A DNA stretch of 64,000 nucleotides from contig CM082598.2 of the NCBI GenBank assembly GCA_040954595.2, positions 9,501,097 to 9,565,096 of the forward strand. Reading direction: 5' to 3'. Positions 10,581 to 61,300 of the stretch are shown one piece after another. This DNA is from Balanoglossus misakiensis. Lineage: Eukaryota; Animalia; Hemichordata. Positions within the stretch are counted from its first letter, which is position 1. Each line of letters begins with the position of its first letter. The notes under the pieces were generated by a model that did no database searches, was not told where the DNA came from, and saw nothing but the letters and a program-made list of their open reading frames with translations. The translations under genes were made by a program, and so were the position numbers.

Positions 10581-11107
10581 GTATGGCTTCTAACAACTCG
10601 CCATGTTAACTTTATTAACAACAACACAACTACTGCGCATGGGCAGGTACTGTACTGCGCATGACATGTACAGAATGCAGCTGGCCATACTGAAAGTATG
10701 TTTTGTTATATGTCTGGATATTACATTTCTCCTTTTCTTTTGAGATAGCAGAATTGTTTCAATTTCTCTTGAAGATTGTCATTTTGTGCTGAGTCTCATT
10801 TCTCTCATGGTTCACGGTCAGTGTTCCTATTTGCAGTTTGATCATGAATATAATGTATGTTTTTCCACAATCTCCGTGTTTCCAAATTTCCAAATATAAA
10901 TTGGCCTTGCTCAACAAATAACATTAATTTCAACTTCAAAAATATCAAATCGAATAGAGATATTATGTCCCTCGGTATAAATGTTCCTGTCTTTTTTCAT
11001 GCGATTTTCACTTTAATACGAACTCGAAATAGAATAAAATATAGAACAATAAACTCGAACATTGTTATTGTCATTGTCAGTTTTTCCCATAGCCTAGCTA
11101 TCGCCTG

Positions 11108-15346: not shown

Positions 15347-17252
15347 GTAGCACTGATCGACACTATATGTACGTCACACTCACGCTCGGCAGATCTGATG
15401 TATAAATTTCTGGGGCGGCTCTCGCTGGGGAATGGTTTGAGTTACTCACCATGCATTTATGGTTATTCTGCTTTGCATTCTGTGGATCGTTTGATCCTCG
15501 TCGCCATTGTAATGTCCCCGACTATGAATCAAATAGATTGACTCGCAGTTGTATGGCTTCTAACAACTCGCCATGTTAACTTTATTAACAACAACACAAC
15601 TACTGCGCATGGGCAGGTACTGTACTGCGCATGACATGTATAGAATGCAGCTGGCCATACTGAAAGTATGTTTTGTTATATGTCTGGATATTACATCGCC
15701 TTAAGGGCGGAGCGTCCCTATATATAGGGGTAGCCAAATGGCGGTGTTCATTGTGTAAATTGACTCTGAAGGGTGAACAGCGGACACACGCTCCCGAGAA
15801 TGCATGATTTTCCGAAGTTTTTGACCACAACATCCTTCACAATGCATACAAATTCCACCATGAATATGTCTCCTTCCGAATTATGGCTTAAATTCCCCAG
15901 ACAGACGCGAATCCTTATCTGCGTTCTGTAAACTGGAATGTGTGTTCACGAGATTGTAGAGGTGCAATTGACTACACACTTTTCGAGGTCATGTCTGTAA
16001 AAAACATGAGTTGATCAAATCGACGTAAAAATGCAAACCTTTCTACTAATACTACTACTAGCACTGGGCAAAATGATTGATATACGACAATATACGTAAA
16101 ACTACTAAGTTTGTACATTTGACATATACGTTTCATATACGTGCATTTACGTAACAAATGCAAGCTGCTAGATATGTGTACAAATACGAGAAGTATACAT
16201 CATGTACACGTTCTCTTACATATACGTTCTGCAGATCTACGTATTTGTAGTTATTTTCTACCGAATAGTGTGCCTACAGTATACATCCATGTATATGTAC
16301 GTATATTCATGCTAATTATTAGGATTATTTGGACCACCCGTTTTTAAAAGCAAACGCTTTCAAAAGTTTGATGAAAGATCTGGGTCGCACTTCTGCGGCC
16401 ACTTTATGTCGCAAAACGCTGGTTGTTTTACGACGTTTTACGACGTCCACCTCCGGTACATAGAAACACCAGCACCGCTGGCAGTCACTGTACGCCGTCA
16501 ACCGTGTGCATAAGTTTGTTTCAACACCAGACAAAGCGAAAGAAGAGTTGTCACAGAAACTTGATAGTCTGGACGCAGAACAGAAGTCTTTGAGGGAAAA
16601 TCGACATGCGGCGGTGATAATCTATGCACCAACAAAGGAAGACCGGATCGTATGATTTTTGTAAGTTTAAACATACATCGTGTTTTGGTCTTGTCCATAT
16701 CCACCCCACCCATGTGTCTGCGTTTTGACACTATTTCTACTCGTTGTTAAGTCCGAGTCCTTTTTATTTCTGCCGTTTGCATTAGTGCATCAAGCATGTC
16801 TATGTAGAACTAGAAACAGGTTTTGATTGACAATTTGACATTTCCACCAAGCATTTGTATTGTTATCTCAAATGTCCCTTGTTTTACTTTGCAGCGGCAG
16901 GTAAAGCACTCAGCTTTATGTAACCATAGAAGATTCATCTGATACAACCAACGAGTAAGTATATCTCTTTTATTCTTAGACTTTTCATTCAATTTGGTGT
17001 AGTATGATTTATAACATTGAGCATAACCCGTAGAGAAAAAAGACGCGGAACATCGGCCAAGATCAAAGGCCTTGAGGATTAGCTAGAACAAAAGGTAAAC
17101 AAACTGGGTTGACTTCCATGTGTGCTCTACAGCTTGGTGTTTCATGGTTGACGACAAACAAAAGATGCATATAAGCGTGGGATTGCTGGATTGCCAGAAT
17201 AGCTGACGTTCAGATATTTTAGCAGCTACTGAGCTTGGATACTTGGTAGCTC

Positions 17253-30200: not shown

Positions 30201-32085
30201 TCGGGGTATGTGTCCACAAGCGTTGACGTGTTGTCTATCCGCTTTGGTGCGTCTGAACTTGTAACACGTAGTGTCATTGCTGCGACAGTGTTGACTGTGA
30301 TTATGTTCAACAGTTGACTAGCGTGTTTCCCCAGAATTATCGGTCCTGGTGTGTCAGCAACGAAGAATTCTATATTGTGCCATTGTTTTGTTCCAACATC
30401 GTATCGCAATCTCAGGTTGACAGAACCATGTTGATTGATTTCTGTGCCGTTGTACGCATATAACTTCACGTGTGGGCGTTTCTCTAGGATGTTACCCTGA
30501 CTGAGTCCTGTAGGACTGACTAGTGATGGAAACATGTTTTTGAATGTTCTCACCGGTAGGACGTTTCCTTGCGCTCCGGTGTCCACTTTACATCTCATCT
30601 TGGCTACCCGACTGTAACCAGGGATGCGTGCGTCAACATCAATCATGATGTCACCGTCATCACGATTTCGTCTTGTGTTTCTATTGATAGCGTCGAAGGA
30701 GAACTGTTCGTAGTCATCATCGGAATCAACGTCTAGTGCGTGTACAGTTTTCTTCCTGCCATCGTCTTGGTTCCCATATCCACTGCGAGTCGTAGTGCGG
30801 CTTTTTGTCTGTCGATTAGATACAAATGGTTTCCTGCCACCGCTTGTGGGCTTTTGTTGTTCATTCAGCAACTTACATCGGGCTTTCCAATGTCCGGTTT
30901 TACCACAAGTACCACATTTGCTATGAAATGCTGGACATTGTCCATATGGGTGGTCCTTTGCACAAAACTTGCAATTAGCTACACCTTTAGTCTTCTTTGT
31001 ATCACGTTTCTTGTGGATAGCATCTACTTTGGTAGTTGGCGTACCTGCACTTTCAAATGCTTTCATGTGCGCATGCGTCGCTTCTTGGGCTCTACACTTC
31101 TTCAGTGCATCTTCTATCGTCAGCTTTTCACCCTCACTGAGCAATTCTTTGCGGGAGTCATTCACTCGTGTACCCATAATTAACTGGTCAATCAGACGGT
31201 CATCCATGTCTTTGAACTTACACTTCAAGGCTAGTGCTCTGCAGCGTGTATAGAACTCATCAATACTTTCTCCATCTTTCTGCTTGTATGCAGTCAAGTT
31301 CAGTCTGTGTACTCGGAAATGATCCGCAAAACCAACTGACTGTTTAAATTTGTCCCATACGTTGTTGGGCGTTTTCCGTTCAAGGTCAGTTAATGTCCAT
31401 GTTTTGGACAGGTGCTCACCCTTTTCTCCTGCTTGGAAGATGATGTAGTGGTGTTGTTCCGCGTCTGGAACTTTCTTTATGTCAAACCAGCGATCCAGCC
31501 TGTTGCGATAATCGAGTAGAGCAGCCTGGTCGTCACCACTCTCCCATTTCATGTGAGGACATTTTATACCGTCGCCCATGTTGGCCAACAGCGTTTGAAA
31601 TGTGTATGTCTGTATCACAAATAACAGGAACAGAGTCTCTACGTAGTCGATCGTTCAAGATCCGTACTGGTGAAAAGACGATATTTACCACGAAAGTTTG
31701 GTAACCAGTTCAATTCCGTCCGTTGTCGAGAATATCGGTTGTCCAAAGTTCATGTAAGGACAGTGTCACGTGTATAGTTCAGAAGGCACGTTTTCAATAT
31801 GGCTTCTTCACCACCGTGACGTCGCGTCGTGCCCTTTCCAATGTAGAAATCCCAGCGTCAATTCGTTCAACACACGAATTATTCACACAAAAGTAGCGTA
31901 TAGAGTTCAAGTGGTCTCAGTATACTTTACCGCTGCCACCATGTAATGTTATGCGTCGATATTCTATATGGAAAGGCACACACTCGTCAAGTTGAACTGT
32001 AACTCAACTTATACTTTATTAGCAAGTACAACGGAAGTGGCGTAGAAAGGTTGGGGGCGCTATTCCACTAGCATATATCATTACA
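27209..32085 (-). mobile_element. Ty3/Gypsy LTR retrotransposon C (Mag-like), very recent
   Basis: Identical 144-bp LTRs at 27209-27352 and 31942-32085. TSD AGGGT (27204-27208, 32086-32090). PBS TGGTGGCAGCGGT (tRNA-Leu-like). PPT AAGAAAGGGGA. Confidence 0.96.
27594..31618 (-). pseudogene. gag-pro-RT-RNaseH-integrase of element C with one frameshift near 29500
   Basis: 707-aa ORF: Gag, CGTCGKTGHWKARC, protease VDTGA, RT LPFGL and IADDII. 613-aa ORF: RNase H VDAS, integrase HMSHQG..CDAC, SDLF, SDGG, NGFIER. The break lies at the end of RT. Confidence 0.93.
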
Positions 32086-39210: not shown

Positions 39211-40192
39211 AATAATAATAATAATAATTTATTCAGTACCAATGGCCACCGGCCAAACTGTACAAAAATTCCAAGTATTACAGGTTTATGACGCTAGTAC
39301 AGTATAAAAAATAGATGCACTGTCACAATTCTGGAGATGGAAATACAGAGACATAATAAACTATACATGTATATTGTTCAAATTATCATGTCTACGTTTT
39401 GTTGCATAGAATATGTATCTGCTGAGATTACGAACAGTTTCTACTTTCTCTGAAGAGAGAAGTAGTGTGAATTTATACAGAACAGGGGGGTTGTGAAAAT
39501 AGTCTGGAATATATTTGACTCTCAAATCAGAGTACTTTGGACAAACTAACAAAAAATGGAATTCGTCTTCGACATATTTCAAAGAACACAAATCACACAG
39601 TCTGTCATGGCGTGGAATATTACTCCATCGTCCGGTCTCTACCTTTAAACAGTGAGCAGAGACTCTAAATTTGCATAGGGCTAGCCTGAATACAGGTTTC
39701 TCAATCTGTAACAAATATGGTTCTACACAGAGTTCTTTTTTAAAAGTTGAATAGGTTTCCAACCTTCTAGAGTGACTCAAATTTTCAGTCCATGACTGGA
39801 CATCAATATCAACACATCTTTGTTTAAAAGTCTTTAAAAACATAGCTTCATTTCCAACACCTTGGTTTTCCCATACTTCACCAAAACCATAACTCTGTAG
39901 CAAAAAGCGTACATTTTTTGCCCAAAACTTATAACGTGTAACATCAATATTACAAAGCTGAAATTCATAGCATTTATATACAATTCTATTTTTATCCATT
40001 TTCAAAATACGGAGCCAATATTTGATAATTTTACAATAAATATGCACCCTTAAGGTAACTCTACCTAATTCGCCTCTCATGGCTACTACTGAAGTATTTT
40101 TATACAGTTTTAAAGCATAACGCATCATTTTGTTGTGAAGCTTCTCAATGTCATGAGCTGGGTGGAAGCCCCAGATTTCTGAACCATACATG
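39211..40192 (-). mobile_element. 5'-truncated non-LTR retrotransposon (RTEX-like, clade inferred)
   Basis: Open ORF2 C-terminus at 39361-40191 (YGSEIWG, GELGR, FRVSAHCLKVETGRW, CDLC..EDEFHFLLVC). AATAAA plus (ATT)n tail. 12-bp TSD AACTCTGTATAT (39199-39210, 40193-40204). Confidence 0.9.
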
Positions 40193-40279
40193 AACTCTGT
40201 ATATACTGCAGTATAGTCATGGACACAGTCAACAACATAGCTGGGGCAATCATAGATGTAGCACCATCATCAACCATTT
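40125..40279 (-). CDS. Terminal exon of the EGF-repeat gene (GPI-signal-like tail), reading into the LINE
   Basis: TTTATTTGCAG acceptor at 40280. Phase 1 matches the EGF exons. Peptide QMVDDGATSMIAPAMLLTVSMTILQYIQS; the pre-insertion end would be TAC TAA at 39194-39199. Confidence 0.65.
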
Positions 40280-40332: not shown

Positions 40333-41570
40333 GGGACCGTTCAGTTTTTACGGCTGGGGTGGGGTGGGGGGGGGGGCAAAATCCAGGGGGGTCACTTAAA
40401 TTTTGAGGTCCAAAAGGGGGGTCATCTTTTTTTTAAAACATTTAGGGGGGGTCACCCACACCCACCCCCACCCCCTCCATTCTTCGTCACATTTCATTTA
40501 TTGGCTGGTTTGTCTAGTGTACCAGGGCAAACTTCTTGTCACCCCACCCCCACCGATGCTTATTTTGAGTGGAGTGGAAAAAGTAAAATTTGTCCTCCCC
40601 AACATTGAGTTAATTTGCTTTTCAATCAATCAATCAAATTTATTTCACTTTCAATTTTTTTACATCGAATGGTGAAAAAAATGTACTATTTAAGTGAAAA
40701 AAGGAGGTAGGAAAAATAGTGCACTCGCACTAGTCAAGTCCACCCCCTCATGGTGAACAGTAGAACACTTGGTTCGTAATACATACAAAAGGAAAAAATA
40801 AAAGTCAAACTATACTTTTCCTAACAAGGATTTCATCTGTTTCTTAAATGAAAATTTTGACCTTGTTGAGCGCATATTTTCAGGAAGTTTATTCCAAACC
40901 TTTGCTGCAGTGTACTTTATGGAATGTTGGCCAGCATTACTGTTATATTTCGGAATAAGAATTCATTAAGAATTCAAGAGTTCATTAAAATGCAACTTTG
41001 AGCACCGTATTTTACAAAATTTTCTTACCCACCCCCTTCATTCTTCGCCACATCTAGTGTACCAGGGCATAGTACTTGCCCACCCCACCCCCGATGCTAA
41101 CTTTGAGTCAGTGGCAAAAGTAAAATTTGTCCTCCCTAACATTGAGTTAATTTGCTTTTGAGTTCATTAAAATGCAACTTTGAGCATTTTACAAAATGTT
41201 CTTATCTTTCTTCACCCACCCCTGCCACTTTTCTTGTTTTACCAATTCTAGCAACTATTGTATTGACTTGTCATTTTAATTTGTTCATTGATTTCTTTAT
41301 TGCAACGATATACTATTATATACTTCAATAATACTTTAAGTAATTTTTAATTGAGGTGTGAGGAGCCTCATTCCCTTTATGGCATACAGTGTACATAGGA
41401 TCAGGATGGCGAATGTTTTCGGTGTGGGGGGGGGGGGGTCATCATAGTTTTTGACCTCTCAAAGGGGGGGTCATCATTTTTTGGTCCTTGGTGAAGGGGG
41501 GGTCGGCCTGATTTTGAAAACAGATGACACAAACTTGCCCCCCCCCCAGCCGTAAAAACTGAACGGTCCC
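40333..41570. mobile_element. PIF/Harbinger-like MITE with G-tract subtermini
   Basis: TIR GGGACCGTTCAGTTTTTACGGCTGGGG. TTA TSD. Internal tandem duplication. Second copy at 45547-46486. Confidence 0.85.
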
Positions 41571-41774
41571 TTAATTCTAATAATCACATCATTGGGAAAA
41601 GTCAATTATATATAACATCCATGCTACTGAATTTCAATTACTTTGTAAATAATTCAAGACTAGTATCAAATTACATAAATTTTCCAGTGCCAAGGCAAGA
41701 AAATTATGTATGCATGACATGTTTATATGTACTGGTATGTATGAACATGTATGCTTATATAAAGTTAGGGTATT

Positions 41775-41902
41775 TGGAGAAACGATAGGCGGTATAATCT
41801 CTACAACGTTGTTTCATGACTCACTGGACTCATCAGGAGACTAAACTGGTCAGTGACTCACGAAACAATGTTGTAGAGATTATACCGCCTATCATTTCTC
41901 CA
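41775..41902. repeat. Hairpin (inverted repeat), possibly a Penelope-like terminal remnant
   Basis: TGGAGAAA.GATAGGCGGTATAATCTCTACAAC.TTGTTTC pairs with GAAACAA.GTTGTAGAGATTATACCGCCTATC.TTTCTCCA. Confidence 0.7.
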
Positions 41903-41982
41903 GCTACCTTTTCTTTATATTCCGCTCAACTTTTGTATTGAGCACTTTGTATCGGACCAGTCGAACTGCATACTTCATATAT

Positions 41983-42085
41983 TATGTATGTATGTATGTA
42001 CCGGTATGTATGTATGCATGTATGTATGTATGCATGCATGAATGCAATGCATGCATGTATGTATCGGTATGTATGTGCATACATG
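41983..42085. repeat. Imperfect (TATG)n microsatellite
   Basis: Run of TATG/CATG tetramers. Confidence 0.85.
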
Positions 42086-42200
42086 TGTACGCAAAAGGGT
42101 ATTTCCTTAATTATTACCACATCTTTCTTAGAGATATAACCCTTACATATACACTGCACTGATTGTATATTTAAAATTTCATACCTGCATCACAGTTTAA

Positions 42201-42705
42201 AGGCACGTAAGCTGCAACTGGATAAAAAATTAAAGTTTTAAATAATCTCATATATGCTTTTAATTATGTCTATTAAATGCTATTTCATGATAATATATCA
42301 AGCTCAACACTTATTTATGACAAAATGGCCAAAAATTAAAGAAAAACAAAAATTCCTGCAATTTTAAAAAAAAGTGCAATATTGCAATGAAAAATATAAA
42401 TCTGGTGTCTCAGTGGTGTACATTTACTTCCATGAGCTCAAGTGGATGAGATCATGTTTTGTTTATGAAGTTTCACAACCGGAAATGCGACATTTTCATT
42501 GTTTCTTTCATTTTCCCACGGTGGTGGCCATAATCGCTTGCGGCAAAGCTTTATTATTTATCTGGTTAAAACTTGCATATGCACTCATATTTAGGGTTTA
42601 CAATGCTTGTGTATTGTTCACTGCCTTCATCTGCATGGACTAATGGTAGTGCAGTTTGAAACAAAAATTATGAAAATTATCCCAAAAGTTACAGCTTACG
42701 TGCCT
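42201..42705. mobile_element. TTAA-flanked MITE (Kolobok-like)
   Basis: TIR AGGCACGTAAGCTG(C)AACT / AGTT(A)CAGCTTACGTGCCT. TTAA on both sides. Purine-purine termini. Confidence 0.8.
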
Positions 42706-43498
42706 TTAAGCCATGCCAGCCTTCATGACAAGTACACGTCACACAGCCTGATAAGGAGCATGTAGAGATTTCAATTGTACTTTCCCCATGACTAATTACA
42801 CATACACCATTTGTACACAAACTTCTTCCACAATATTCTGGAATGCAAAAACATTACAACATTGTAAACATTGTAATTACATGGATGGTAAAAGAGCTTT
42901 TGAAGGCCATAAAAATAAGAAATAAGTTAAAATTTCTCTAGAATAAAGATTTTGTGGAAATTAAAGGCTTATTTAAGGATGTATGCTCAGTAAAATTGAA
43001 AGTGTTGTCATTTCTTTTAAAGCTCTAGTATTTCATCATAACTGTTCAGTATCAATTAATTATCATGTACTTTTAGAAATTGAAGATGCCGTTTCAAACA
43101 AAATTATGCGAAAATGAGAAATACTGTGGCTTTAATTGTTGATTTAATGGTGTATGTAAAATGAAAATCTTTGATAAAATATAGGGGTCACCACGCTCAA
43201 TTTTGAAATACAGAGCCATGAATATAGTCGATAATTGAAGAAAACTGCTGAGTCAGCATTTTTAACCAATGGATTGTCTATGGGCAAAAATTTAAACGAA
43301 ATTTATCACAAAATAGATCTAGAGCAATTTGATTTGACCAATGAATTCATATTGACTGGACTGAGCTACATGTAAAATTTCGTGAAAACGACAATAGTAG
43401 AAATGTGTTTTAACTTGCAATTATCAATGTAATCCTATGGAAAAAAAATACATGTGCACTAGTTATCAGTGTACTTTCTGTATAATCATTGGACTCAC

Positions 43499-43591
43499 GG
43501 CAGCTGGTTCCTGACCATGGATCTTCACAAATACATCCAGAGCCATCAACAGCGCAGTATCCATGTGCACAATTCTTTCCATTGCAAAAAT
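43499..43591 (-). CDS. EGF-like repeat exon (third in window order of transcription)
   Basis: 93 bp, phase 1-1, CTGCAG|...|GTGAGT. Peptide DFCNGKNCAHGYCAVDGSGCICEDPWSGTSC has six Cys and the CxC...W.G..C pattern. Confidence 0.85.
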
Positions 43592-44707
43592 CTGCAGTAA
43601 TGGAAAATACACAACCATGATCACTCATGGGCCTACCAGGTAGACATATAATAAAAACTCAAGAACAAACTTGACTCAAATACATCAACTTTTCACCACT
43701 GCGCAAGCTTAAATGTATTATGGTCACGGATGAGCTGATCCTTAGGCCAAAAAAATAATATAAGCTGTTCCGATTACACGTTTTTTTCAAAAATAGGGCA
43801 GGTAGGTAGGGAAATGTTTTTATTTTGCAATTTTTAGGTCCGATTGGTATGTACCGTGGGACCTTATGGGATCGGTTGCGTCTGTATGTATGTATGTATG
43901 TCTGTATGTATGTATGTCTGTATGTCCGTCCACATCAAAAACTTGAAAACCGCTGCGCGTATGACCTCGTTATTTGGTGTGTAGATGCAGGCAGGGCTGT
44001 AGATGGGAGTTTGTTCAAATGAAGTCGTCATTGCCCAAAATATGCAAATTAGCTGGGAAAATGTGAAATTGGTCAAAACTCAAAAACTCGACAACCACTG
44101 GTCATATTGATTTGAAAATTGGTATGCATGTACCTTATGTCAACCTCATACAGTCCTGTATGTTTTGAGCTAGTATTATCGATTTCCTATTTTTGATGCA
44201 TTTTTTTGTATTTTTCCATGTTATTGCTAAAAAGTCTTCATGTCTTCATTACTTCTTTGAAATTTAGTATGAAGATTCCTTATAGATGTCTGAGTAACCA
44301 TGAGTAACCATAGTTTTGTTCAAATTGTGGCAAAATTTGCATATTTATAATTTTGAGCAATATTTGCCATTTTTGGTCAAATTTTTTTTTCTTTAAAACC
44401 GCAAGCCAGACTGCTTTGCAACTTGGTAAGCATGTTCGTAGAGGTAACCTAAGTAAGATGTTGCTAAAAAAAATGTGATATTTGCATAAATGTGGTATTG
44501 GGGAAATCTTTGCAATTTTTGTCAAAAATTGTTTTCTCTGAAACTGCTTGTCATATTGCATTGAACTTTGGCAGCATGTTCCTTGTAGTGATTGAAGTAA
44601 GATATTGTACAATTTTGGTGATATTTGCATATTTGTGTTTTTGCCACTTTTTAACAAATATTTTCTGTGAAACTGCTTGTTGGATTGCTTTGAAATTTGT
44701 TTTTTCT

Positions 44708-47132
44708 CAATCTGATTAAAATCAGATGTAGGGAACGGCGACGTGGATTTTTTTATGCTGTCACCTCACACTACAAGTAAACACACAAAAATAAACCAGA
44801 ACGCGAGCGGTTCGGACGTTAGGACAAGTTAATCGCATCATATTTGGAGTCGGTTAGGAGGTAGAAGTAGACAGGGAAAGGATTTTACTTCAATCGATAA
44901 AATCGAATTTTGGCCGAAAACGCTGCGGTCCAGATCAGGAACACACAGACCTGTACGCAGAGCTATCGGTCGGTACGCGTTTCTGCAGAAATACAAACGA
45001 TCGTGGCGACAGAATCTCACCCTGGGATGGCCTTACACATATGTAATCGATTCTCTAACAATTTTACTCCGACTTGTTGCCACATCTTATACATTTCGGT
45101 GGCCGGTGGATAGAGGTTCAGTCGTCACGCTGAACTGGCTCGAAACCATTCCCCACGCTGATTCCACTCTCGCGCTGGGATACGTCTAGCTCCATGGTAA
45201 CAGCCGCAAGGGGCCAGATCATGTGATAATTAGGATGCCTATCGTTCGCTATGAGGCGATTGATTGGTTTCCTGGCCCAGTCGATTTCAACAAGCTCCAG
45301 TGGGAGTTGGTCAGATGTAGTGTGAGGCGACAGCATAAAAAAAAATCCACGTCGCTGTTCCCTACATCTGATTTTAATCAGATTGGTTTACATGTTGAGA
45401 TCGCCATACTGAATATAAGGTTTACAGCGAGTTGAGCCTTGCAGGGCTGGCCGTGTAACGCCGCCGCCAGGAACACACAGACCGACTGCACTGACTTGAC
45501 CTTCCTTAGCCGAAGTTAGCGTTATTTTTAAAATCCTGTCACATTAGGGACCGTTCAGTTTTTACGGCCGGGGGGGGGGGGGGGGGGGGGGGGGCGGTCG
45601 GCAAAATCCAGGGGGGGTCACTTAAATTTTGAAGTCCAAAGGGGGGGGGGTCATCTGTTTTTTTAAACGTTAAGGGGGGGGTCACATACTTTTGCCACCG
45701 AACTTTTGCTTTTGAGTCCACAAAATTGCAGTTTCGCGCCCTTTATTTTACAAAATTTTCTAATGTGGGAGGGGGACACCCGTCCCCTTCATTCTTTGCC
45801 ACATTTCGTTTTTTGCTGGTTTGACTATTCTACCAGGGCAGAGTGCTTGCCACCCCAACCCCACTGATGATAATATTTAACAAAGTAAATACATAAAGGA
45901 GAATAATCGTTTAAACCATTTCAAATAACTGATAGTTTTGCGCTGCATCTTCTATATACTAGAAGTTTTATAAATGATGTCATGACGAAGATGACGCCAA
46001 ATCTTCTAACTTTGAGTGGAGTGGCAAAAAGTAAAATTGGTCCCTCCAAACATTGAGATAATTTGCTTTTGAGTTCATTAAAATGCTACTTTGAGCTACA
46101 TATTTTACAAAATTTTCTTATGTGGGAGGGGGACACGCCCACCCCCGCCACTTTTCTTGTTTTACCAATTCTAGCAACTATTGTATTGACTTGTCATTTC
46201 TTTTTGTTCATAGATTTCTTTATTGCACTGATATACTATTATATACTTCAATTTATAATTTATAATTGAGGTGTGAGGAGCCTCATTCCCTTTATTGCAT
46301 ACAGTGTACATAGGATCAGGACGGCGAATGTTTTCGGCGTGGGGGGGTAATCATATTTTTGGGTCTGTCAAAGTGGGGGTCATCATTTTTTGGTGCTGGG
46401 TGAAGGGGGGGTCGGCCTGATTTTGAAAACCGATGACACAAACTTGCCGCCCCCCCCCCCCCCAGCCGTAAAAACTGAACGGTCCCTAATGGTTTTGGTA
46501 AACATGGCAGTGGAAATTGGTTTATTTTTTTATAAACATGTTGCTGAGACATCAACGCTGAATAATTAACACCATTGTGTGATCAAGTTCAGTTGTAGTC
46601 GGATCGAAACGTCGCAACTGTTTCAAAAATACTGTTCCAAAGTGACTATATTCCACTATCTACTTTCAAATTGATTCTTGGAACCATGAACAATATATTT
46701 TCCATTAGGTTATTTTTCCCGACTGGCGGCATGACTACCATGACGAGATTTTATGAATGATCAGCGAAAGTTCATCATTTGTATATGGCTACAGCTCGAC
46801 GTTGCACTGCTCTGCAAAAACCACTCGTATACGATGATGTCAAACAAAGAAAGATATGGGAGAATATGTAATTGTTCACAAGAGAAAGCCAGTCGGTCGT
46901 GTTCTGTGCGGTACTCGAATGAAGTCAACACCTAATTTATCCCATTTTCCCAGTGCAATTCTTGGGTTTTTGTTTCCTCCAGTGCGGTCGACGTAACATG
47001 CAATCTGATTGGCCGGGTCGTAATGCGCAATTTCAACGGCAGCTCCAGTGAGAGTTGGTCAGATGTAGTGTGAGGCGACAGCATAAAAAAAAACCATGTC
47101 GCCGTTCCCTACATCTGATTTTAATCAGATTG
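44708..47132. mobile_element. Composite TIR element: one left end, two right ends
   Basis: Left TIR CAATCTGATTAAAATCAGATGTAGGGAACGGCGAC at 44708. Right TIRs end at 45385 and 47132. The host repeat and a TTTTTTCT-like TSD resume only after 47132. Confidence 0.75.
45547..46486. mobile_element. PIF/Harbinger-like MITE (same family as 40333-41570)
   Basis: Same TIR GGGACCGTTCAGTTTTTACGGC and shared interior. TTA/TAA flanks. Confidence 0.85.
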
Positions 47133-51033: not shown

Positions 51034-54000
51034 CACTCTTAGGTGAGAGGTCGCGCTACGTGCTGCACCCACTGCTTTTAGTCTCTCCAGTTTTGTCATT
51101 TTAAACGTGTTTTTCGCACCTTCGCCGTTTTATTCCTGCTCGAGTTGGTTTATGAATGTCTGGACCCTACCCTACAACTTTTACTGACATCTCAACTTTC
51201 CTGCTTTTGGAACTACAGTGGCTTTTAGTTTACTTTCGCCGGTCTCAGTATTTCAATAGTCGCCATCTTTCCAAGTCATGCCTCCACCAGTGTATACTGC
51301 TGCCACCCTGATGAACATCGGTAAGAATGTCATGAATGACCGCCTATTGTCCAGGATAACTATCACCTTATGGAACAAGCTCAAAGATTTGAACTATGTA
51401 AGACTCTGAATACCAAAAGAGGCTGCTTTGCAGGCAGACAAAAGCAACGATGCATCTCAACACGAATAACGCCGTATCACCTGTTCAACAAATGCAGAAT
51501 ATCCAATCAGTGTTCCCGTGTTACTTATGGTAATCTCCTCAGGATTCCTACTACTGAATATTCAAATAGCCATGGCGAACTACTGCATAACAATAATCAG
51601 TCTCAGACTGGTTTTGTTCCAGCGAAAGACAAATCACACAATATTCCAGTCGACTTATCTCCTGTCACGAAGCCATCCATCGATCAGCATCCAAGAAATG
51701 TTCTACGCTGCGCCTTCATGAACTGTCGATCATTGTGCAATAAATCCACAGCTATCAACGAATTCCTGCAAGACTGTCATTTGGATGTTTTAATGCTTGC
51801 TGAAACGTGGCTTCGTGACGATGACAGTGATTCATCCCTCATCAATGAAACTCTGCCACCAGGCTATAGCATCATCAGTGTTCCGCGTAAAGGTCGTGGG
51901 GGAGGCATCGCTACGATTTTTAAATCTTCACTGTTAGTGTCACAATGTCCACCTTCTACCTCAATCAAGTCGTTTGAATTAATGGAGGTACGTATAAAAA
52001 CTCCATCGTCGCATATCACACTAGCCACGGTTTACCGTCCTCCTCCGAATAAAACAAATGGTTTCACTGTTGATGACTTCGTTAATAACTTCACTGACTT
52101 CTTGTCTTCTCATCTCACCAACAACGCCCCTCTTGTCATCACTGGCGACTTCAATTTTTATATTGACAATCTAATGCCCAAATGCTCGGAAATATCATGA
52201 CATTCTGGAGTCGTTTTCTATGAGTCAATTGATAACTTCTCCTACACATCGTGCTGGTCATACTATTGACCATATCATTACTCGTGCTGATGACAGTACC
52301 ATCGCTGATGTCCGAGTTGAACCGATCCATGCGATCTCTGATCATTTCCCAGTGTTATTCTCAATACGCAATTACTCTTACGTTAGAAACACGCGTAAAT
52401 CTGTTACATCAAGGGATATGAAATCCTTTTCCGCTAATGGTTTCGCTGCTGATTTATCTGCATCCATCCGCCTTCAACCTGATGCTGACGTATCTACTAA
52501 TTGGGATTTGCTTAAAAACACTGTTAGCGATATATTTGATCGCCATGCACCAACCCGTGTGAGACTAGTGCCAAATAGGCGACCAGTGCCATGGATTAAT
52601 CAGTCAATCATCGATGCCCGGTTGAAAAGAATGAAGGCAGAAAAAATGTGGAGAAAATCTGGGTTGGAAGTACATCGCCAGATTTACAGGGCCTGTCGGA
52701 CCGACGTCGTTCGCCTTGTGGATGCTGCTAAACAGAACCATTATGTCGGCCTTGTTGACGAGTGCTCAGGTAACCAAAAACTATTATTCAAGGTCGTAAA
52801 GGGACTGCTTGGTCACAATAACACATCCACTGTACTACCAAGACATGATGATTCTCTGGAATTAGCAAATCGTTTTGCAAAATTCTTCATTAATCGCGTA
52901 AAATCACTAACTATAAATATGGGCAATTCCATTCGACATCATTCACAACCACAAACTGATTTGAAATCCGATTGTCGCCTTAATGCCTTTGAGCCTACAA
53001 CTGCTGATGAAATTTACAAGGTTATTCGTGCATCGCCTTCATCTACTTGTCGCCTTGATCCGATTCCTACCAAGATCTTCAAACATTCTGACATTTTACA
53101 AGTTTTGTTACCACATATCACAGAAATCTTCAATAACTCTCTGCAGTATGGTGTTGTACCTCCTCATTTCAAGGAAGCCGTCGTTAAACCTCTACTTAAA
53201 AAGCCATCTCTTGATCATGAAGTTCTCAAAAATTTCCGTCCTGTATCCAACCTGCCGTTTTTGTCGAAGATCCTGGAACGTATTGTTGCCAAGAGACTGA
53301 CTTCTCACATTGTCAACCATTCATTGGACGAGCCTTTGCAATCTGCTTACAAGCCAGGACACAGTACTGAGACTGTCAACCATTCATTGGACGAGCCTTT
53401 GCAATCTGCTTACAAGCCAGGACACAGTACTGAGACTGCTCTCCTCAAAGTAACAAATGACATTTTGCTTGCTCTTGATGAAAAAAGAGATGTTTTCTTG
53501 GTATTACTCGATCTTTCCGCAGCATTTGACACTGTGAACCATACCATTTTACTCAATCGCTTAAGAGACCGCTTTGGTCTCTCTGATACTGCTCTCATGT
53601 GGTTTAAGTCATACCTTTCCAATCGTAGTCAGTGTGTACTTGTAAATTCCACCCAATCACCTTTTTATCCGCTCGGCACTGGGGTACCACAGGGATCAGT
53701 TCTTGGTCCCATACTTTTCAATATGTACACGTCTCCATTAGGTGAATTAGTTCAAAGTCATGGTTGTCTTTATAGTTTTTATGCAGATGACTCTTCACTT
53801 TATATGTCTTTTAGTAAAGACAACGCAGCAAGAACTGTTTCAAATCTTGAACTTTGTATATCCGATGTTAGGTTTTGGATGTCTGAAAACTTCTTGTGCT
53901 TAAACGATGATAAGACTGAATTTGTTATTTTCTCTGGTATTTCGGGTGATCTGTCTGATAGAGGCATTTCAGAAATTCGTGTTGGCGATTCTCTGATTCC

Positions 54001-54728
54001 CGTCCATTGTCAGGCTAAGAGCCTTGGAGTGATCCTTGACTCTTGTCTGACAATGAAGCCACATATTGGACAGATCTGCCGCTCTGCCACTTTTCATTTA
54101 CGTCGCATTGCGCTTATCCGCAAATATTTATCTCATTCTGCTACAGAGCAATTAGTTCATGCATTCATTACTTCTCGAATTGATTCATGTAATTCACTTT
54201 TATTTGGGCTCCCGAAGTATTCAATCAACCGTATCCAACGCGTTCAGAATATTGCTGCTAGAATTGTTACTCGTTCAAAAATCACCTGTCACATCACTCC
54301 AATTTTGTATCAGTTGCACTGGCTACCTGTTACAGAGCGTATTGTTTTTAAGATGTTAGTTCTCATTTTTAAATCCATTCATAAACTTGGTCCAATCTAT
54401 CTTTCTAGCATGACTAATCTATATGTTCCGTGTCGCAATTTAAGGTCAGCTGATCAGTTCAAACTCTGCCCTGTTCGATCACGCACCAAGAGTTATGGTG
54501 ATCGTGCTTTTACTGTTGCTGGTCCAATTCTTTGGAATAATCTATCACTCACCATTCGCCAGGCACCAGACTTATCTGTTTTTAAATCAAATGTTAAAAC
54601 TTTACTTTTTAAATCTGTTTTTTAGCCATTTGTTGTATTGTACTTTTGCTTTAAGCGTCATTGATCACATTTTTTGTGGATACTGACGCTATACAAATAA
54701 ATTATTATTATTATATTATATTATTATT
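51034..54728 (+). mobile_element. Near full-length single-ORF L2/CR1-group LINE, frameshifted
   Basis: APE endonuclease (NCRSL, LAETW, GGGI, VYRPP, TGDFN, HTIDHI, SDHFPV). RT (NFRPVSNLPFLSKILE, LLDLSAAFDTV, GVPQGSVLGP, YADD, LHWLPV). 3' stem AGCGTCA...TGACGCT plus (TTA)n. No TSD. Confidence 0.93.
52220..54625 (+). CDS. LINE reverse transcriptase ORF (801 aa), separated from the endonuclease ORF (51370-52200) by a frameshift
   Basis: Canonical non-LTR RT motifs. Contains an in-frame 63-bp tandem duplication. Confidence 0.85.
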   Translation: MSQLITSPTHRAGHTIDHIITRADDSTIADVRVEPIHAISDHFPVLFSIRNYSYVRNTRKSVTSRDMKSFSANGFAADLSASIRLQPDADVSTNWDLLKNTVSDIFDRHAPTRVRLVPNRRPVPWINQSIIDARLKRMKAEKMWRKSGLEVHRQIYRACRTDVVRLVDAAKQNHYVGLVDECSGNQKLLFKVVKGLLGHNNTSTVLPRHDDSLELANRFAKFFINRVKSLTINMGNSIRHHSQPQTDLKSDCRLNAFEPTTADEIYKVIRASPSSTCRLDPIPTKIFKHSDILQVLLPHITEIFNNSLQYGVVPPHFKEAVVKPLLKKPSLDHEVLKNFRPVSNLPFLSKILERIVAKRLTSHIVNHSLDEPLQSAYKPGHSTETVNHSLDEPLQSAYKPGHSTETALLKVTNDILLALDEKRDVFLVLLDLSAAFDTVNHTILLNRLRDRFGLSDTALMWFKSYLSNRSQCVLVNSTQSPFYPLGTGVPQGSVLGPILFNMYTSPLGELVQSHGCLYSFYADDSSLYMSFSKDNAARTVSNLELCISDVRFWMSENFLCLNDDKTEFVIFSGISGDLSDRGISEIRVGDSLIPVHCQAKSLGVILDSCLTMKPHIGQICRSATFHLRRIALIRKYLSHSATEQLVHAFITSRIDSCNSLLFGLPKYSINRIQRVQNIAARIVTRSKITCHITPILYQLHWLPVTERIVFKMLVLIFKSIHKLGPIYLSSMTNLYVPCRNLRSADQFKLCPVRSRTKSYGDRAFTVAGPILWNNLSLTIRQAPDLSVFKSNVKTLLFKSVF

Positions 54729-55522
54729 ACCAAATTGCAAAGCAATCTGGCATGCGGTTTTAAAGAAAAAAAAATTGACCAAAAATGGCAAATATTGCTC
54801 AAAATTATAAATATGCAAATTTTGCAACAATTTGAACAAAACTATGGTTACTCAGACAACCATTAGAAAGCTTCATACTAAATTTCAAAGAAGTAAGCCC
54901 ATCACTTTCAGAAATGAAGACTTGTTACCAATAACATGGAAAAATACAAAAAAATGCATAAAAAATAGGAAATCAATAATATTAGCTCAAAACATACAGG
55001 ACTGTATGAGGTTGACATAAGGTACATGCATACCAATTTTCAAATCAATATGACCAGTGGTTGTTGAGTTTTTGAGTTTTGACCAATTTCACATTTTCCC
55101 AGCTAATTTGCATATATTTGGCAATGATAACTTTATTTGAACAAACTCCCATCTACAGCCCTGCCTTCATCTACACACCAAATATCGAGGTCATACGCAC
55201 AGCGGTTTTCAAGTTTTTGATGTGGACGGACATACAGACTTACACTGTACATCCATCCATCCATACATACATACATACAGACACAACCGATCCCATAAGG
55301 TCCCATGGTACATACCAATGGGACCTAAAAATGGATAAACGCGAGAAATACTGGGGCTTTAAGATGGGGCACCCGCATCTTTTTGCCCGTTGCTATGGGC
55401 CTTCATAGGACACTACACTCAAGTTTGAAAGAAACCGCTATGAATGCCCGAAAAGGGGCTTGTAACTTAGTTGAAAATACGCACAATTGTGTACATACCC
55501 CCTGTCCGAGGATGGTTAACGG

Positions 55523-55585: not shown

Positions 55586-56004
55586 GGTTACTGGCAGCTA
55601 CCGCCTGGCCATGGGCTGCTACGCTAATATGGCAAAGCAGCGGACAGCGATAGCATGCACGTCCTGTAACCACAATAACTGGATCAAACACTAAAAATCC
55701 AATGATTTTGTACACAGAGATCTTGTACCGTTCACAAAAATCCCTAAGGCTTTTTTCATAGGCCAAATACGCCAGTCAAATTTGACCTGTTGACAGAGAA
55801 CACACTTCCGCATAGCATGAAGGACAGTTTTAACGGTTATCATTGCGCTAAGAAGCGATACCGGTGGAAGAGTGCGTCCAAAAACACCCAAAATCGGTGA
55901 CTTTTCCAGGGTGGTACGGGTATGCTGAAATCGACAGATACAACGACCATATTTGAAAACAAAATCCTTCTCGATCTTCTCTGGTTCGAGCAACTTATGA
56001 ATAC

Positions 56005-59000
56005 TGTTGTGATCGCCGATGTCTCACCTGAGTGCGTCTAATCTACGGTTTCTAAAGGTCTTTTGGGAGGTCAGTCAAAGGCATGCTGCTCGATCTGAAG
56101 CATAGCAGAAAGAGAACGAACTACTTCCGCCCAGGGGTGGGTAGGGTCAGTGACGTCATGGGCAGATTCACAACACTCTTCCCCACCACATTTTGAAGGG
56201 CTTCGTCTTCTTCCCCCAAAACACCGGGGGATAACACAACATCGAACACAACAATAACAAAAATACAAAGATAGAATGTCCAGCTGGGCTTTACTGGGTA
56301 TGCCCCACTGGTCGGCCTGTTTGTTTCTTTTCTGGTGCCTCTTCCAACAGCTGTTGGAGGGCTTCCTCCTGTTGGTTTCTTTATCTTTTTGGGGTGAAGC
56401 CCGACCGCCACGTTCCACCCCGGCTCCCTAAGCAGGAAGTGGTGACACCTTCGCTTCGGTGAGCCTGGGCTCTCATGCGGTCCGAGTGGAAGTGGGTATC
56501 TATAGCCTGGGATAGTCCCCTGGCTGGTGACGCCGCACTGGGTCGTCTCCCTTCTGGGCTTCTGGCGCTTGCTTGGGACTGTGGTCGTGGTGCCGCTGGG
56601 GCTTCCACTGCTGATTTCTTTCCAGATGGGGGCCCTTCCACTGTCCCCGAGAGGTCAGGTGGCCTCTCTGGGCTTGCTTTCTCGGGTGGCCTCCCCTGCT
56701 CATCCTGTGGCGGCCTTTTCTCTACCCTCTCCACCGATGCCGACTCCACTCGAGGGCGGGATCCCGCGGATTTCCAGCGCCTGCTCGAACGGCTTCTCTT
56801 CCTCCTGCTGCACCTGATGGTGGCTGTCGAGGACGCAGTGCGAGTCGGGTTTGGTAGATGTCTCGCTGGCCTTAGGATCAGTCGTCTGGGCAATGTAACT
56901 TTTGCCACTTTCCCTTTCGTCCCTTGCCGACCATATGTCATGTGTACACTTTCACCGTCAAACCGCAACTGATTTCTTCGCATATCTAGAATCACTCTCC
57001 TTGTCCGCATAAAGTCTGCCCCTAGCAACATGTCATCACCTATCGGCGCTACATACACGTCCTCTGTGAATTTGGTCTTTCCCAACTTCAGGCGCAAGGG
57101 ACCTACTTTATGGGCTTTCATTTCCATTTCACGCCCTGCAGTTTGCATGATGGTGGTTTTGAGTACTGGGGGGCGGTTCCCAAGACGGCCGTAGAGACGG
57201 TCTGAAATGATGGTGACTTCTGCTGCCGTGTCTACTACTGCCTGTACTTTAATCCCTTCAACTGCAATGGGCACACTGTACATAGACCCTGACACTAATT
57301 GACATAAAGTTATGGGCTGGGTGTCATCACCGCTGGGGGATTCATTCGCTGTGGATTCATCAGTGTCCGAATTCGGGGAATCATACTCCTGTTCGTCCAA
57401 AGACTCCCCTGACGAGTTGTACTGTTCGTCGGTTCGTGCATCCCTAGGGTGTAGATAGAACCCGTGCCCTTGCAATGTATTGTCAGTGTGGGTATCTAAA
57501 GTGGCCTGACACCCTGACCCCTCTTCTCGGATTTTGGCACAACCCTTGGTGTCAGTGCGTGTTGTCACCCTGTCAATTCCATTTCCTCCTTCCTTCACTT
57601 TGGGATCATCTCTTCTGAGTATTGGGCCCTTTGGTGGCTCCTGGGTCAAACTTAGGCCCTCTGGTCTGACCCTTTCCCGCTGCTCAGCGAATGTTACCCG
57701 TTTCTCCCCGGAATCTGAGGTTACTCTTTCCCTTCCCTTGGGGCATTCCCTACGGAAGTGTCCAGATTCCCCACAGTTAAAGCATTCCTGTCCCCTAGGG
57801 GAGGGTGACCGAGACCGGCCTGCCTCGCGTGGGGATAGGGCAACCACTGTCTTTCTCAAACCCTCTAAACTTTTGGCCATTTCAGTCATTCGTTCGTTAA
57901 GGGTATTTATCCCGGGACTGGGACTCGGGTTACGTAGGGTTCGAAACCTCTCCCGCGAGCCCGTTCCGCTGTCCGTGGGTGATAAATCCCGATCTCTGGG
58001 GGGTCGCTCCCGAGTGGCTGATCGCACGCGTATGAACTCGCCGTCGCTATCTGTCTCAGATGTTACTCGTTCTACTTCTCGACGCGAGGTTCGGCGGCCG
58101 AAGATTTCGCGATTGTTATATTGGAACCAACGTATTTGGTCTATGGCCTCTTCCATGGAGGATGCGCGCTGGTTAGCAACGTAAAGCCCTGCCTCGCGAT
58201 CGGAGCATCCCTGACAAAACCTCATTATTGCCTGACGGTCCATAGCGCGTTCCGTCAGATCGGGGAAAGCGTTTGTCGCGAGGGACAGGATTCGATCGGC
58301 CCATTTTTCGAGTGACTCCCCTTCTTTCTGATGGGACTGCTGAAATCTAATCTGCGCGGTCTCTGGCAGTTCTCGGCGCCCAAAACGCTTGTCTAGCTTA
58401 CTGACCAGCCGCTGGTAGCTGATATTTCGCTCGCGCCTGAGCAGTGTCGAGTGAAATTCACTGGCGTCGCCGTCTAAGCAAAAGCACAAGCAACATTTGC
58501 GTTCGCTTTCCGTCCAACCCTGGGCATCCGCGTAACAGGTGAATTTATCAAAAAACACGCTCCATTTCCTCTCCCCAGTGTAAACTAAAGTTTTGGGCGT
58601 ATTAAATATCCTCGAGCCGAAGGCGGGCCCTTCCCTGCCTCCACCATGCCTCATGAACGAAGATTCACCATAAGGGTGGTTTTGCGGCACGTTCCCATAC
58701 GACGGAGTCCAGGTGGCATTGGCTGGGGCGTATGGGCTAGGGCTGCTTCCCGTTTGAGATGGTGGGCCGTAGTACGTGGGATAGGGGGTCCCTGGTACTG
58801 GAGCGGCGCCACCACGGTTTTCAGTGGGAAATCGCCAATCAGCGCGTTCGTAGGGGCTGGCTGGGAGCGGTGTGGACCCCATCGGATATGGTGGCGGTGG
58901 GGTAAAATACCTTGGGAAGTTGTCTGGTGGATACGGTGGAGACATCCCGACCGGATTCCCTGGGTAACGGCTTTGCTCTGTTGTGTGAAACTTATCCCTG

Positions 59001-60205
59001 TCTCGGGGTCCCCTGCAGTACTCACTTGCTGTGGGAGGGTAACCCCAACTATCCAATTCTCGATGTTGGCCAATTTTCTCCCCTCCCCTGGGATATGGGG
59101 TTGTCTTGGGCCCTGTACTATTTCCCCTCCCATACTCCAGTGATGACTGATCACTTTTGCTAGCCCGCTCTGAAACTGGGATTTCGGGTGGCCCCTGGAA
59201 TTTCCCCGTTTTGCGTGTATTTCTGCAGGCCGGTGTTTGCCGGTCCTCATCACTACTACTACTGCACCTTATTTCATAGGACACCATTTCGTGAAATTCA
59301 GGTGTGGGCCTGAGATGAGGGATTTCCCCTAATATTTCTTTTGAGACCCTCCCGTATCTATTTCTGGCTCTCAAGATTGCCTTTGCCACTTTTTTACCTA
59401 CCCCTGGCAAGGTCTTAAGGGTCATGAGGTCACATGTGTTGATATAAACTGGACCCCTGGAGACCATCATGATGTGATCTATTGGCCCTTTAAACAAACT
59501 AATAACTAACTACACACTCCCTCACACAACACGTGGGATTTACACGAGTGAACTGTTTTATTAACAAGAATAATCCCAACACACAAAAGCTCACTCCCAC
59601 ACAAAAGAAACTCGAATGCTTGCTAAAGAAAATCTCTGCGCATGCGCCGAACCCCAAACACGTCTTTTGTAATGAGGACCCCTCTAGCAATAGAAATGGG
59701 CCCTATGTGCCAAAATGGCGGCCGAATTTCCGCCCACGCTACTTTGGGAAAAAACGCAGAAAATTTGACTCAAACTACCTCCAAAACCCCGGTACCTACC
59801 CAGTACCGTCCCTAAACCTCGCTAAAAATCCCCGCGGTCCCCGAGAGTTTGCCCAGTGTCTTCTGGCCCCGGCAATCCCCGATATCCCGTTTTTCCTATG
59901 CCCAGAAAAACCCCACGTCGCACCCGGACGCAATCGCTGGATTCCGACTACACAGAAACACCACTCTCCCTCCCCCGCGTATCAAAAAAAAGCGTTTCCC
60001 CGCACAAGGCTCGAACACAGGCTCGCAGCGCCAATGTTGTGATCGCCGATGTCTCACCTGAGTGCGTCTAATCTACGGTTTCTAAAGGTCTTTTGGGAGG
60101 TCAGTCAAAGGCATGCTGCTCGATCTGAAGCATAGCAGAAAGAGAACGAACTACTTCCGCCCAGGGGTGGGTAGGGTCAGTGACGTCATGGGCAGATTCA
60201 CAACA
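56005..60205 (-). mobile_element. Young non-autonomous Gypsy-type LTR element encoding HhH-Gag-protease only
   Basis: Identical 171-bp TG...CA LTRs (56005-56175, 60035-60205). 4-bp TSD ATAC. PBS TGGCGCTGCGAGC (tRNA-Ser-like). PPT GGTGGGGAAGAG. Confidence 0.93.
56381..59470 (-). CDS. Helix-hairpin-helix / Gag / CCHC zinc knuckle / retropepsin polyprotein (~1029 aa from the first ATG)
   Basis: N-terminal VYINTCDLMTLKTLPGVGKKVAKAILRAR (HhH). Pro-rich linker. Gag core YTGERKWSVFFDKF..GW..L.KRF..Q..GESL..WADRI..L. Knuckle CFNCGESGHFRREC. Protease AVVDTAAEVT..MLLGADF. No RT, RNase H or integrase motifs. Confidence 0.88.
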   Translation of the reverse strand: MMVSRGPVYINTCDLMTLKTLPGVGKKVAKAILRARNRYGRVSKEILGEIPHLRPTPEFHEMVSYEIRCSSSSDEDRQTPACRNTRKTGKFQGPPEIPVSERASKSDQSSLEYGRGNSTGPKTTPYPRGGEKIGQHRELDSWGYPPTASEYCRGPRDRDKFHTTEQSRYPGNPVGMSPPYPPDNFPRYFTPPPPYPMGSTPLPASPYERADWRFPTENRGGAAPVPGTPYPTYYGPPSQTGSSPSPYAPANATWTPSYGNVPQNHPYGESSFMRHGGGREGPAFGSRIFNTPKTLVYTGERKWSVFFDKFTCYADAQGWTESERKCCLCFCLDGDASEFHSTLLRRERNISYQRLVSKLDKRFGRRELPETAQIRFQQSHQKEGESLEKWADRILSLATNAFPDLTERAMDRQAIMRFCQGCSDREAGLYVANQRASSMEEAIDQIRWFQYNNREIFGRRTSRREVERVTSETDSDGEFIRVRSATRERPPRDRDLSPTDSGTGSRERFRTLRNPSPSPGINTLNERMTEMAKSLEGLRKTVVALSPREAGRSRSPSPRGQECFNCGESGHFRRECPKGRERVTSDSGEKRVTFAEQRERVRPEGLSLTQEPPKGPILRRDDPKVKEGGNGIDRVTTRTDTKGCAKIREEGSGCQATLDTHTDNTLQGHGFYLHPRDARTDEQYNSSGESLDEQEYDSPNSDTDESTANESPSGDDTQPITLCQLVSGSMYSVPIAVEGIKVQAVVDTAAEVTIISDRLYGRLGNRPPVLKTTIMQTAGREMEMKAHKVGPLRLKLGKTKFTEDVYVAPIGDDMLLGADFMRTRRVILDMRRNQLRFDGESVHMTYGRQGTKGKVAKVTLPRRLILRPARHLPNPTRTASSTATIRCSRRKRSRSSRRWKSAGSRPRVESASVERVEKRPPQDEQGRPPEKASPERPPDLSGTVEGPPSGKKSAVEAPAAPRPQSQASARSPEGRRPSAASPARGLSQAIDTHFHSDRMRAQAHRSEGVTTSCLGSRGGTWRSGFTPKR

Positions 60206-60599
60206 ATACGAATCAAGTTCTATTTGAAGTCACGGATCGAATAAAAAGCCTTAGGCTTTTGAAATTTGACCTAGCTAATTTGCATATCAATAGCGTCAGG
60301 GGTAGATTTTCAACTAGTTACCAGCCCCTTGTTAGACTCTGAAAAAGGTTTAGTCCAAATTGGGGTGTAATGTCCCAAAACGACCCATAGCAACGGTCAA
60401 AAAGATACGGGTGTCCCATTTTAAGTATATCAGACATGTGGCCATGCCATGGTATTGTTCATGCTTAATGTGTATTGCAATTTGAATCTTTGAAATGAAG
60501 GGACACACAGGTTTGCTTTAATGTATTTTAAAGTCATGTTATGACTAATCAGATAGCAAATGAAGAAAAGGTAAAAGGTAAACCTTTCCTGTGTAATAA

Positions 60600-61300
60600 G
60601 GCTGCATTCACAAACACCTCTGGAGGGGGGGGGGCAGGAGAATTGAGGGGGGGGGATTTGAAAGAATTGAGGGTATGTAAGGGGGGGATTTGAAATTATT
60701 TAGGGACTGAAAGGGGGGGACTTGAAAACTTTGACGACTAAAAATTTATTTTGAGTCCACAAAAATGCAGTTTCGCGCCTTTTATTTTACAACATTTTCT
60801 AATGTGGGAGGGGGACACCCCCTCCATTCATCAACACATTTCAATCATTGACTGGTTTATCTAGTGTCCCAGGTCAGGGGACTTGCCCCCACCGCATGAT
60901 AACTTTGAGCGGCGACGGTTAAATTTGTCCTCCCCAACATACCGGTAGTTGAGTTAATTTGTTTTTGCCAGGTTTATTAAAATGCAGCTTTGAGCTCCCA
61001 ACACAGAATACAAATACTAAAACAAAAAATAAAAACAATGTTCAGTTTTAATACACACTGATGAGGGGAAACATCAGTTTCAAATTCTTTTCATGGGAGT
61101 GCTGTTTTTCTTTTTTACAAGATAGATAGGTGATGTGTTTTGCTCTGTGAAAGAAAATGGGGGGGATTTCAAAATGTTGGCAGTTCGGAAGGGGGGATTT
61201 GAAAATATTTCGGGTTGTGTACGAGGAGCATGTGAAAATTAGCGGTAAAAAAAAATTGAATTCTCCCCCCCCCCCTCCAGAGGTGTTTGTGAATGCAGCC
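60600..61300. mobile_element. PIF/Harbinger-like MITE with G-tract subtermini
   Basis: Perfect TIR GGCTGCATTCACAAACACCTCTGGAGGGGG. TAA TSD. Part of the interior is shared with the 45547 family. Confidence 0.85.

Follow-up and report, generated by a model that had tools for sequence, protein, structure and literature searches.

The window, i.e. the whole 64,000-nucleotide stretch of Balanoglossus misakiensis DNA analysed here, carries on its minus strand (56005-60205) a 4.2-kb element with paired TG...CA LTRs, a primer-binding site, a purine-rich tract and a target-site duplication (Table 1), as expected of an LTR retrotransposon. The primer-binding site presumably matches the 3′ end of tRNA-Ser. 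The LTRs are identical and the element is young, having inserted recently; public contigs join its flanks without the element and thus represent the empty site. The insertion lies in a MITE-like repeat of ~0.86 kb with inverted ends at 55359-55478 and 60306-60424 (77% identity), for which contig depth is very high.

Table 1. Parts of the HhH-Gag element in window coordinates
Feature	Position	Strand	Basis or remark
Target-site duplication, 4 bp	56001..56004, second copy 60206-60209	.	Sequence and empty-site contigs
3′ LTR, 171 nt	56005..56175	-	Pair comparison with 5′ LTR
Purine-rich tract, adjoins 3′ LTR	56176..56189	-	Sequence
Tail lacking RT, RNase H and integrase; stop of ORF at 56381	56190..56917	-	Pfam
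Aspartyl protease, D-T-A motif	57011..57274	-	Pfam Asp_protease_2, 39.7 bits
Hairpin at gag/pol junction	57643..57672	-	Slippery heptamer before hairpin in relatives, none in window copy
CCHC zinc knuckle, single	57737..57787	-	Pfam zf-CCHC, 29.5 bits
Gag capsid core, PNMA/Retrotrans_gag-like	58073..58612	-	Pfam PNMA, 32.4 bits; median 42% identity to 41 relatives
Pro/Ser-rich linker, aa 67-285	58613..59269	-	Unconserved; across 41 relatives, identity has a median of 8%
HhH, ComEA/HHH_3-type, aa 1-64	59276..59467	-	Pfam, alignment, AlphaFold2 (pLDDT 89), fold match
5′ leader	59468..60020	-	Sequence; one upstream ATG besides that at 59470
Primer-binding site, starts TGG, one base past LTR	60021..60033	-	Sequence
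5′ LTR, 171 nt, TG...CA ends	60035..60205	-	100% identity to 3′ LTR; repeat extends to neither side

An HhH domain fused to Gag

The minus-strand frame, open between 59509 and a stop codon at 56381, contains ATGs at 59470 and 59467; from the latter, the ORF encodes 1028 aa, in which a helix-hairpin-helix (HhH) domain is followed by a linker, capsid, CCHC knuckle and protease. The N-terminus reads M-M-V-S-R-G-P-V-Y-I-N. The initial annotation had placed a ComEA-like HhH at 59310..59470, in frame with Gag, the CCHC knuckle and the protease. This fusion is borne out, as the Pfam family HHH_3 (PF12836) scores 35.6 bits (E 9.9e-9) against the 89 aa at the N-terminus and 30.4 bits against the whole ORF, in both cases above the curated cut-off of 27 bits, and PNMA, zf-CCHC and Asp_protease_2 all exceed their Pfam cut-offs in the same frame. 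The start is at ATG 59470 or 59467, seven to eight codons before the 'VYIN' from which the ORF had been quoted, and the domain does not end at 59310, since conservation reaches approximately aa 64 (59276). The first hairpin of the window copy reads L-P-G-V-G and the second is degenerate. In single-sequence searches, aa 1-80 alone gave nothing at E<=0.001 among 64 candidates in a word-indexed protein search, and the single HhH sequence had no match in the PDB. We reject a bacterial ComEA contaminant or a chimeric assembly, because identical LTRs flank the domain, which is in frame with Gag and is seen again in dozens of relatives.

The Gag is of the Ty3/Gypsy (Metaviridae) type, with a Ty3-type capsid and a CCHC knuckle followed by the aspartyl protease. 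Pfam searches between the LTRs detected no RT, RNase H or integrase either in the ORF or in the three frames of the tail. This copy is therefore non-autonomous, and RT and integrase would have to come from an autonomous relative. The contig spanning the protease-to-tail join (56726-57097) has a depth of 468, compared with about 24 for the flank contigs at 60305-60529; these depths, which come from three runs of one sample, possibly the source, and do not equal copy number, suggest that the short RT-less form is a multi-copy family.

The in-frame joining of Gag and protease is unusual in this lineage, whose gag/pol junction is otherwise conserved. Among CCHC-bearing proteins, 109 of 114 end within 60 aa past the knuckle, and 75 of the 114 carry the motif [LGPK]-N-x-x-G at the Gag end (shuffled sequences: mean 5.4, maximum 12). 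We compared the junction of the window copy (57643-57700, minus strand) with those of the two relatives for which DNA is available (L001:1939-1981 and L002:1616-1658). Both relatives have a TTTAAAC heptamer followed, after six bases, by a hairpin, and a slippery heptamer with a short spacer and a hairpin is a typical −1 frameshift signal. The window copy retains the hairpin without a slippery site in phase, and it is open in the frame that corresponds to the −1 frame of the relatives, so that an in-frame Gag-protease fusion is not the norm of the lineage. Thus, the window copy makes a constitutive Gag-protease fusion, whereas most relatives end Gag at a stop, two of them with a −1 signal. In L001, a contig with several frame breaks, the protease lies in the gag frame past the stop and may be expressed by readthrough.

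Distribution and descent of the domain

The initial annotation had also proposed that the HhH might define an LTR lineage. HHH_3 was present in both of the first two relatives found. A three-sequence profile then retrieved 440 representatives under a threshold of E<=1e-30 and 2655 under one of 1e-10, of which the best 150 were analysed; together with the window copy, and after one capsid-less match had been dropped, 151 proteins with a capsid match were considered. A profile of the lineage HhH scores no more than 4.7 bits against any of 1520 shuffled proteins and 66 bits against the window domain (itself part of the profile), which is thus no chance match. This profile detected the domain in 86 of the 97 proteins whose capsid is preceded by 130 aa or more, and in one of the 54 with a shorter N-terminus. 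As it was built from 56 of the proteins on which it was counted, two checks were added. Pfam HHH_3 was found at E<=0.01 in 54 of 81 long-N-terminus proteins chosen among ids up to P0110, and above the cut-off in 25 of them, in a count made by hand with two proteins displayed with their top five families only scored as misses. After correction for bias, with the three seeds left out, the HhH is present in 67 of the 78 long-N-terminus relatives that pass the search cut-off without the share contributed by the HhH. The domain therefore marks a whole Ty3/Gypsy-type lineage, found at least in echinoderms and molluscs.

Typically, the HhH begins within 15 residues of the N-terminus (76 of 87 proteins) and is separated from the capsid by 38-661 aa (median 191). 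The 11 long-N-terminus relatives without it are scattered over the capsid tree and may represent truncated gene calls or repeated real loss. An organism is named for 6 of 30 protein clusters. The named carriers are the sea urchin Lytechinus pictus and the bivalves Mercenaria mercenaria, Mytilus coruscus and Pinctada imbricata; named relatives without the HhH are Mytilus galloprovincialis and a Sedimenticola metagenome bin, whose Gag (P0083) is likely animal host DNA in the bin. Both metagenome loci (L001 and L002) carry the HhH, one of them with a frame break. Among long polyproteins (1396-3985 aa), the search yielded a single distant Gag-Pol (P0157), which has no HhH, and no intact HhH-Gag-Pol, as expected if gag and pol occupy separate frames. 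Among viral contigs, 56 pattern matches were obtained and none was confirmed. In the ESM Atlas, aa 1-480 matched only low-scoring Gag clusters.

In L001, Gag, protease and RT follow in this order, with the Ty3 RT as the best PDB match for the latter; the contig stops short of RNase H and integrase. Mollusc Gypsy clades (Mag, CsRN1, Cigr-1 and MolGy1-16) are defined on RT/RNase H (PMC6238403), and for this reason the HhH-Gag lineage may well be one that already has a name. No description of the HhH-Gag layout was found in the literature searched, which does not take in subscription journals, bioRxiv supplements or the collections Repbase, GyDB and Dfam, in agreement with the earlier suggestion that it is little described. 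Apparently, HhH-Gag is an undescribed architecture made of known parts and not a new kind of system.

To what extent the domain has been maintained can be judged from its divergence. Compared with 41 relatives, the window copy has a median identity of 33% in the HhH and 42% in the capsid, against 8% in the linker. For 70 proteins in which both parts are complete, those more distant in the HhH also tend to be more distant in the capsid (rho 0.34, permutation maximum 0.18, p 0.001), and eight of the nine supported HhH splits are present in the capsid tree with none in conflict, in a comparison that is unrooted and gives no date for the capture. Correlated distances and matching splits fit a joint inheritance of HhH and capsid and not repeated capture. 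Moreover, of the 13 variant sites in the HhH, 9 are silent where 25-30% would be expected (P 0.001-0.004), whereas all three in the linker change the residue; the sites come from divergent copies in one sample and from few contigs. Judging from these substitutions, the HhH is under purifying selection and is not freely decaying across copies.

These observations bear on the view that the HhH is a passenger captured by the element, or an annotation accident, and has no role. The non-autonomous state of the window copy and the 11 relatives devoid of the domain would be compatible with it, but a passenger should not persist at 33% identity beside a linker at 8% across hosts of two phyla, nor descend together with the capsid and show an excess of silent changes. 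We regard this possibility as very remote and already largely refuted.

Fold, DNA-binding hallmarks and possible donors

An AlphaFold2 model of the HhH built with the 56-row alignment has a pLDDT of 89. In a wide structural search its closest matches were ComEA (8dss; Z 10.3, rmsd 2.5, 64 aligned), the ComEA-related 2duy (Z 8.8, rmsd 1.9, 60 aligned) and Tex (3bzc; Z 8.4, rmsd 2.8, 65 aligned), followed by TEFM (Z 5.8). Foldseek ranked the matches of this model in the same way, but none reached E<=0.001 (best 0.12), and with a single-sequence model (pLDDT 67) it found no significant match. On the predicted model, the HhH is of the ComEA-like fold class, which together with the Pfam score above the cut-off confirms the ComEA/HHH_3 identity first put forward. 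The fold neighbours include Tex/Spt6, TEFM, PsbU and GspK, and given such a mixed set the fold alone does not fix the ligand.

As to the donor, EEPD1 is the top match when the lineage profile is compared with PDB sequences (E 1.2e-12, over two stretches), ahead of ComEA (E 8.2e-9); scored per single domain, ComEA reaches 36.5 bits versus 30.7 bits for EEPD1. KIF22 (2edu) is a weak match (E 0.043; Z 4.8). In the ESM Atlas, the HhH of relative P0021 matches prokaryotic and phage HHH_3 clusters at 0.85-0.93, which is a lead only. By sequence, EEPD1, KIF22 and ComEA are all candidate donors.

The initial annotation regarded the motif as one for sequence-nonspecific dsDNA binding, and the hallmarks of such binding are retained in part. 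The lineage shares with ComEA the pattern I-N...L..LPG[IV]G...A..I...R. In the alignment, the first hairpin matches G-[VI]-G exactly in 39 of the 56 members (G-V-G in the window copy), with the proline present in 52 and the second glycine in 51, and a K or R follows within three residues in 36. The second GhG hairpin, by contrast, is found in none of the 56 aligned members. When residues K62, K63 and R71 of V. cholerae ComEA are mapped onto the HhH by spacing, the K62 position is basic in 25 of 56 (K in the window copy), the K63 position in three (V in the window copy), and that of R71 coincides with the invariant R35 of the lineage. In V. cholerae ComEA, the principal DNA contact is made by K63, and R71 is considered structural (PMC3879209). 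Net charge is neutral on average (median 0, negative in 27 of 56), the window copy having +5. Hence the first hairpin upholds the proposed motif, while the second hairpin and the K63 position do not. The (HhH)2 domains of EEPD1 do not bind DNA alone, four per dimer being needed (PMC12988330). Judging from these features, dsDNA binding by a single HhH is likely to be weak and may depend on many copies; alternatively, the ligand may be something other than dsDNA. A prediction of a two-copy HhH complex, in which the alignment was not used, scored 0.00 and weighs neither way.

A domain that does not bind nucleic acid at all would be a protein-interaction module, engaged in Gag-Gag contact or host-factor docking and filling the place of a matrix domain. 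PsbU and GspK, two of the fold neighbours, are not known to have a DNA role. The best conserved residues (N10, L17, P21, A28, R35 and D63-F64) are core or structural, whereas surface charge is unconserved and the second hairpin has disappeared; in addition, (HhH)2 domains form dimers in XPF-ERCC1 and in Mus81-Eme1 (PMC12988330). On the other hand, the glycines of the first hairpin, which contact the DNA backbone in HhH motifs, have been kept (second G in 51 of 56). A myristoylated, matrix-like anchor was rejected, since Gly-2 occurs in 1 of 66 proteins, and the missing glycine also speaks against a matrix-type role more generally. A protein-interaction module seems to us rather unlikely.

Possible role and relation to known systems

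Chromatin tethering, cDNA protection and integration-site choice, the three uses suggested in the initial annotation, all count as hypotheses. The reading that we prefer, and hold with a little less than even confidence, is that the HhH grips dsDNA weakly and multivalently from the surface of the capsid and thereby tethers particles to chromatin. The Ty3 capsid contains 540 copies with the N-terminus running outward (PMC6525542), so that a weak binder would suit a capsid, and because of this orientation the HhH would hang outside on its long flexible linker. The one intact GhG hairpin would contact the DNA backbone independently of sequence, and avidity across the lattice, with hundreds of copies, would offset the lost second hairpin and the neutral charge. 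The target would be host chromatin, gripped before integration, as for foamy-virus Gag, which tethers to chromatin (PMC7828637). The HhH might, however, be removed by the protease, and the avidity argument would then fall.

Alternatively, the HhH could be an element-encoded stand-in for BAF, binding and compacting the element's own cDNA (or RNA) within the particle or the integration complex so as to protect it or block self-integration. BAF contacts dsDNA by way of an HhH motif and keeps retroviruses from autointegrating (PMC3381236). The outward-pointing N-terminus of a Ty3-type capsid disagrees with such a function, unless the linker, with its median of 191 aa, threads inward or the protease releases the domain. 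Tex, the third fold match, is a nucleic-acid-binding protein, but internal nucleic-acid binding is already supplied by the CCHC knuckle and a neutral domain fits condensation poorly. BAF is also not among the 50 fold matches listed, which does not amount to an exclusion test. We consider this alternative unlikely. The wider scenario, in which a retrotransposon lineage, old and widespread among marine invertebrates, goes back to a single capture of a ComEA/EEPD1-type HhH that now serves either as a Gag-borne DNA clamp on chromosomes or as a BAF stand-in for cDNA, appears to us evenly poised between true and false.

Tethering of particles to chromatin through the HhH would have partial precedents. 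The closest counterpart in print is the RBD-capsid-NC arrangement seen in PNMA-related metaviruses (PMC10516033), the main text of which does not contain the term 'HhH'. Those elements share with the HhH-Gag lineage a PNMA-like capsid, one CCHC and a folded domain of nucleic-acid-binding type before the capsid; their RBD is described as a mixed alpha/beta RNA-binding fold of vertebrate elements, whereas the lineage HhH is small and mostly helical. ComEA differs in being a bacterial DNA-uptake protein, while the lineage HhH is fused to a retrotransposon capsid. EEPD1 (9yi2) resembles it in having a flexibly tethered HhH that binds DNA in several copies only (PMC12988330); EEPD1 and KIF22, which has a C-terminal HhH, are however host proteins. 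Foamy-virus Gag is likewise a structural protein that tethers its element to chromatin, but through a short motif in a GR-rich part (PMC7828637) with no homology to the HhH as tested. BAF, also an HhH protein guarding cDNA, is encoded by the host and again shows no homology as tested. Finally, a region named 'helix-hairpin-helix' has been reported in the LTR retrotransposon Cer1, but this CERV H domain is described as helical, with a possible leucine zipper, and belongs to a separate RNA-export protein (PMC10309623); it is not of the ComEA type and not at a Gag N-terminus.

The region before the capsid of Ty3/Gypsy Gag, where surveyed, consists mostly of long helices and disorder (PMC10516033), and the HhH is a well-folded, selected domain of 64 residues in this variable region of a large lineage. 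It provides a diagnostic marker for the lineage and is small enough for direct assay. The HhH also predicts a connection between Gag and integration that can be put to the test, with a bearing on how Ty3/Gypsy particles reach host DNA. If chromatin tethering by the HhH is true, chromatin would be targeted through a folded DNA-binding domain carried by Gag, in a way that differs from both the chromodomains of integrases and the peptide tethers of foamy viruses, and a capsid with a DNA-gripping surface would be of interest for engineered retroelement delivery capsids.

The window holds several other repeats. Three more young LTR elements lie at 6183-10556, 10581-15696 and 27209-32085, on the same minus strand as the HhH element; two stand side by side, the repeat pairs are 99-100% identical, and all three have gag/pol frames without an HhH. 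Judged from translations, LINE-type remnants are present at 51340-54625 (plus strand; an endonuclease and RT frame) and 39361-40266 (plus strand; a C-terminal fragment). A dispersed repeat family, D2, with paired G-rich boxes ~32 nt apart, occurs at 40381-46410, 60646-60718 and 61170-61290.
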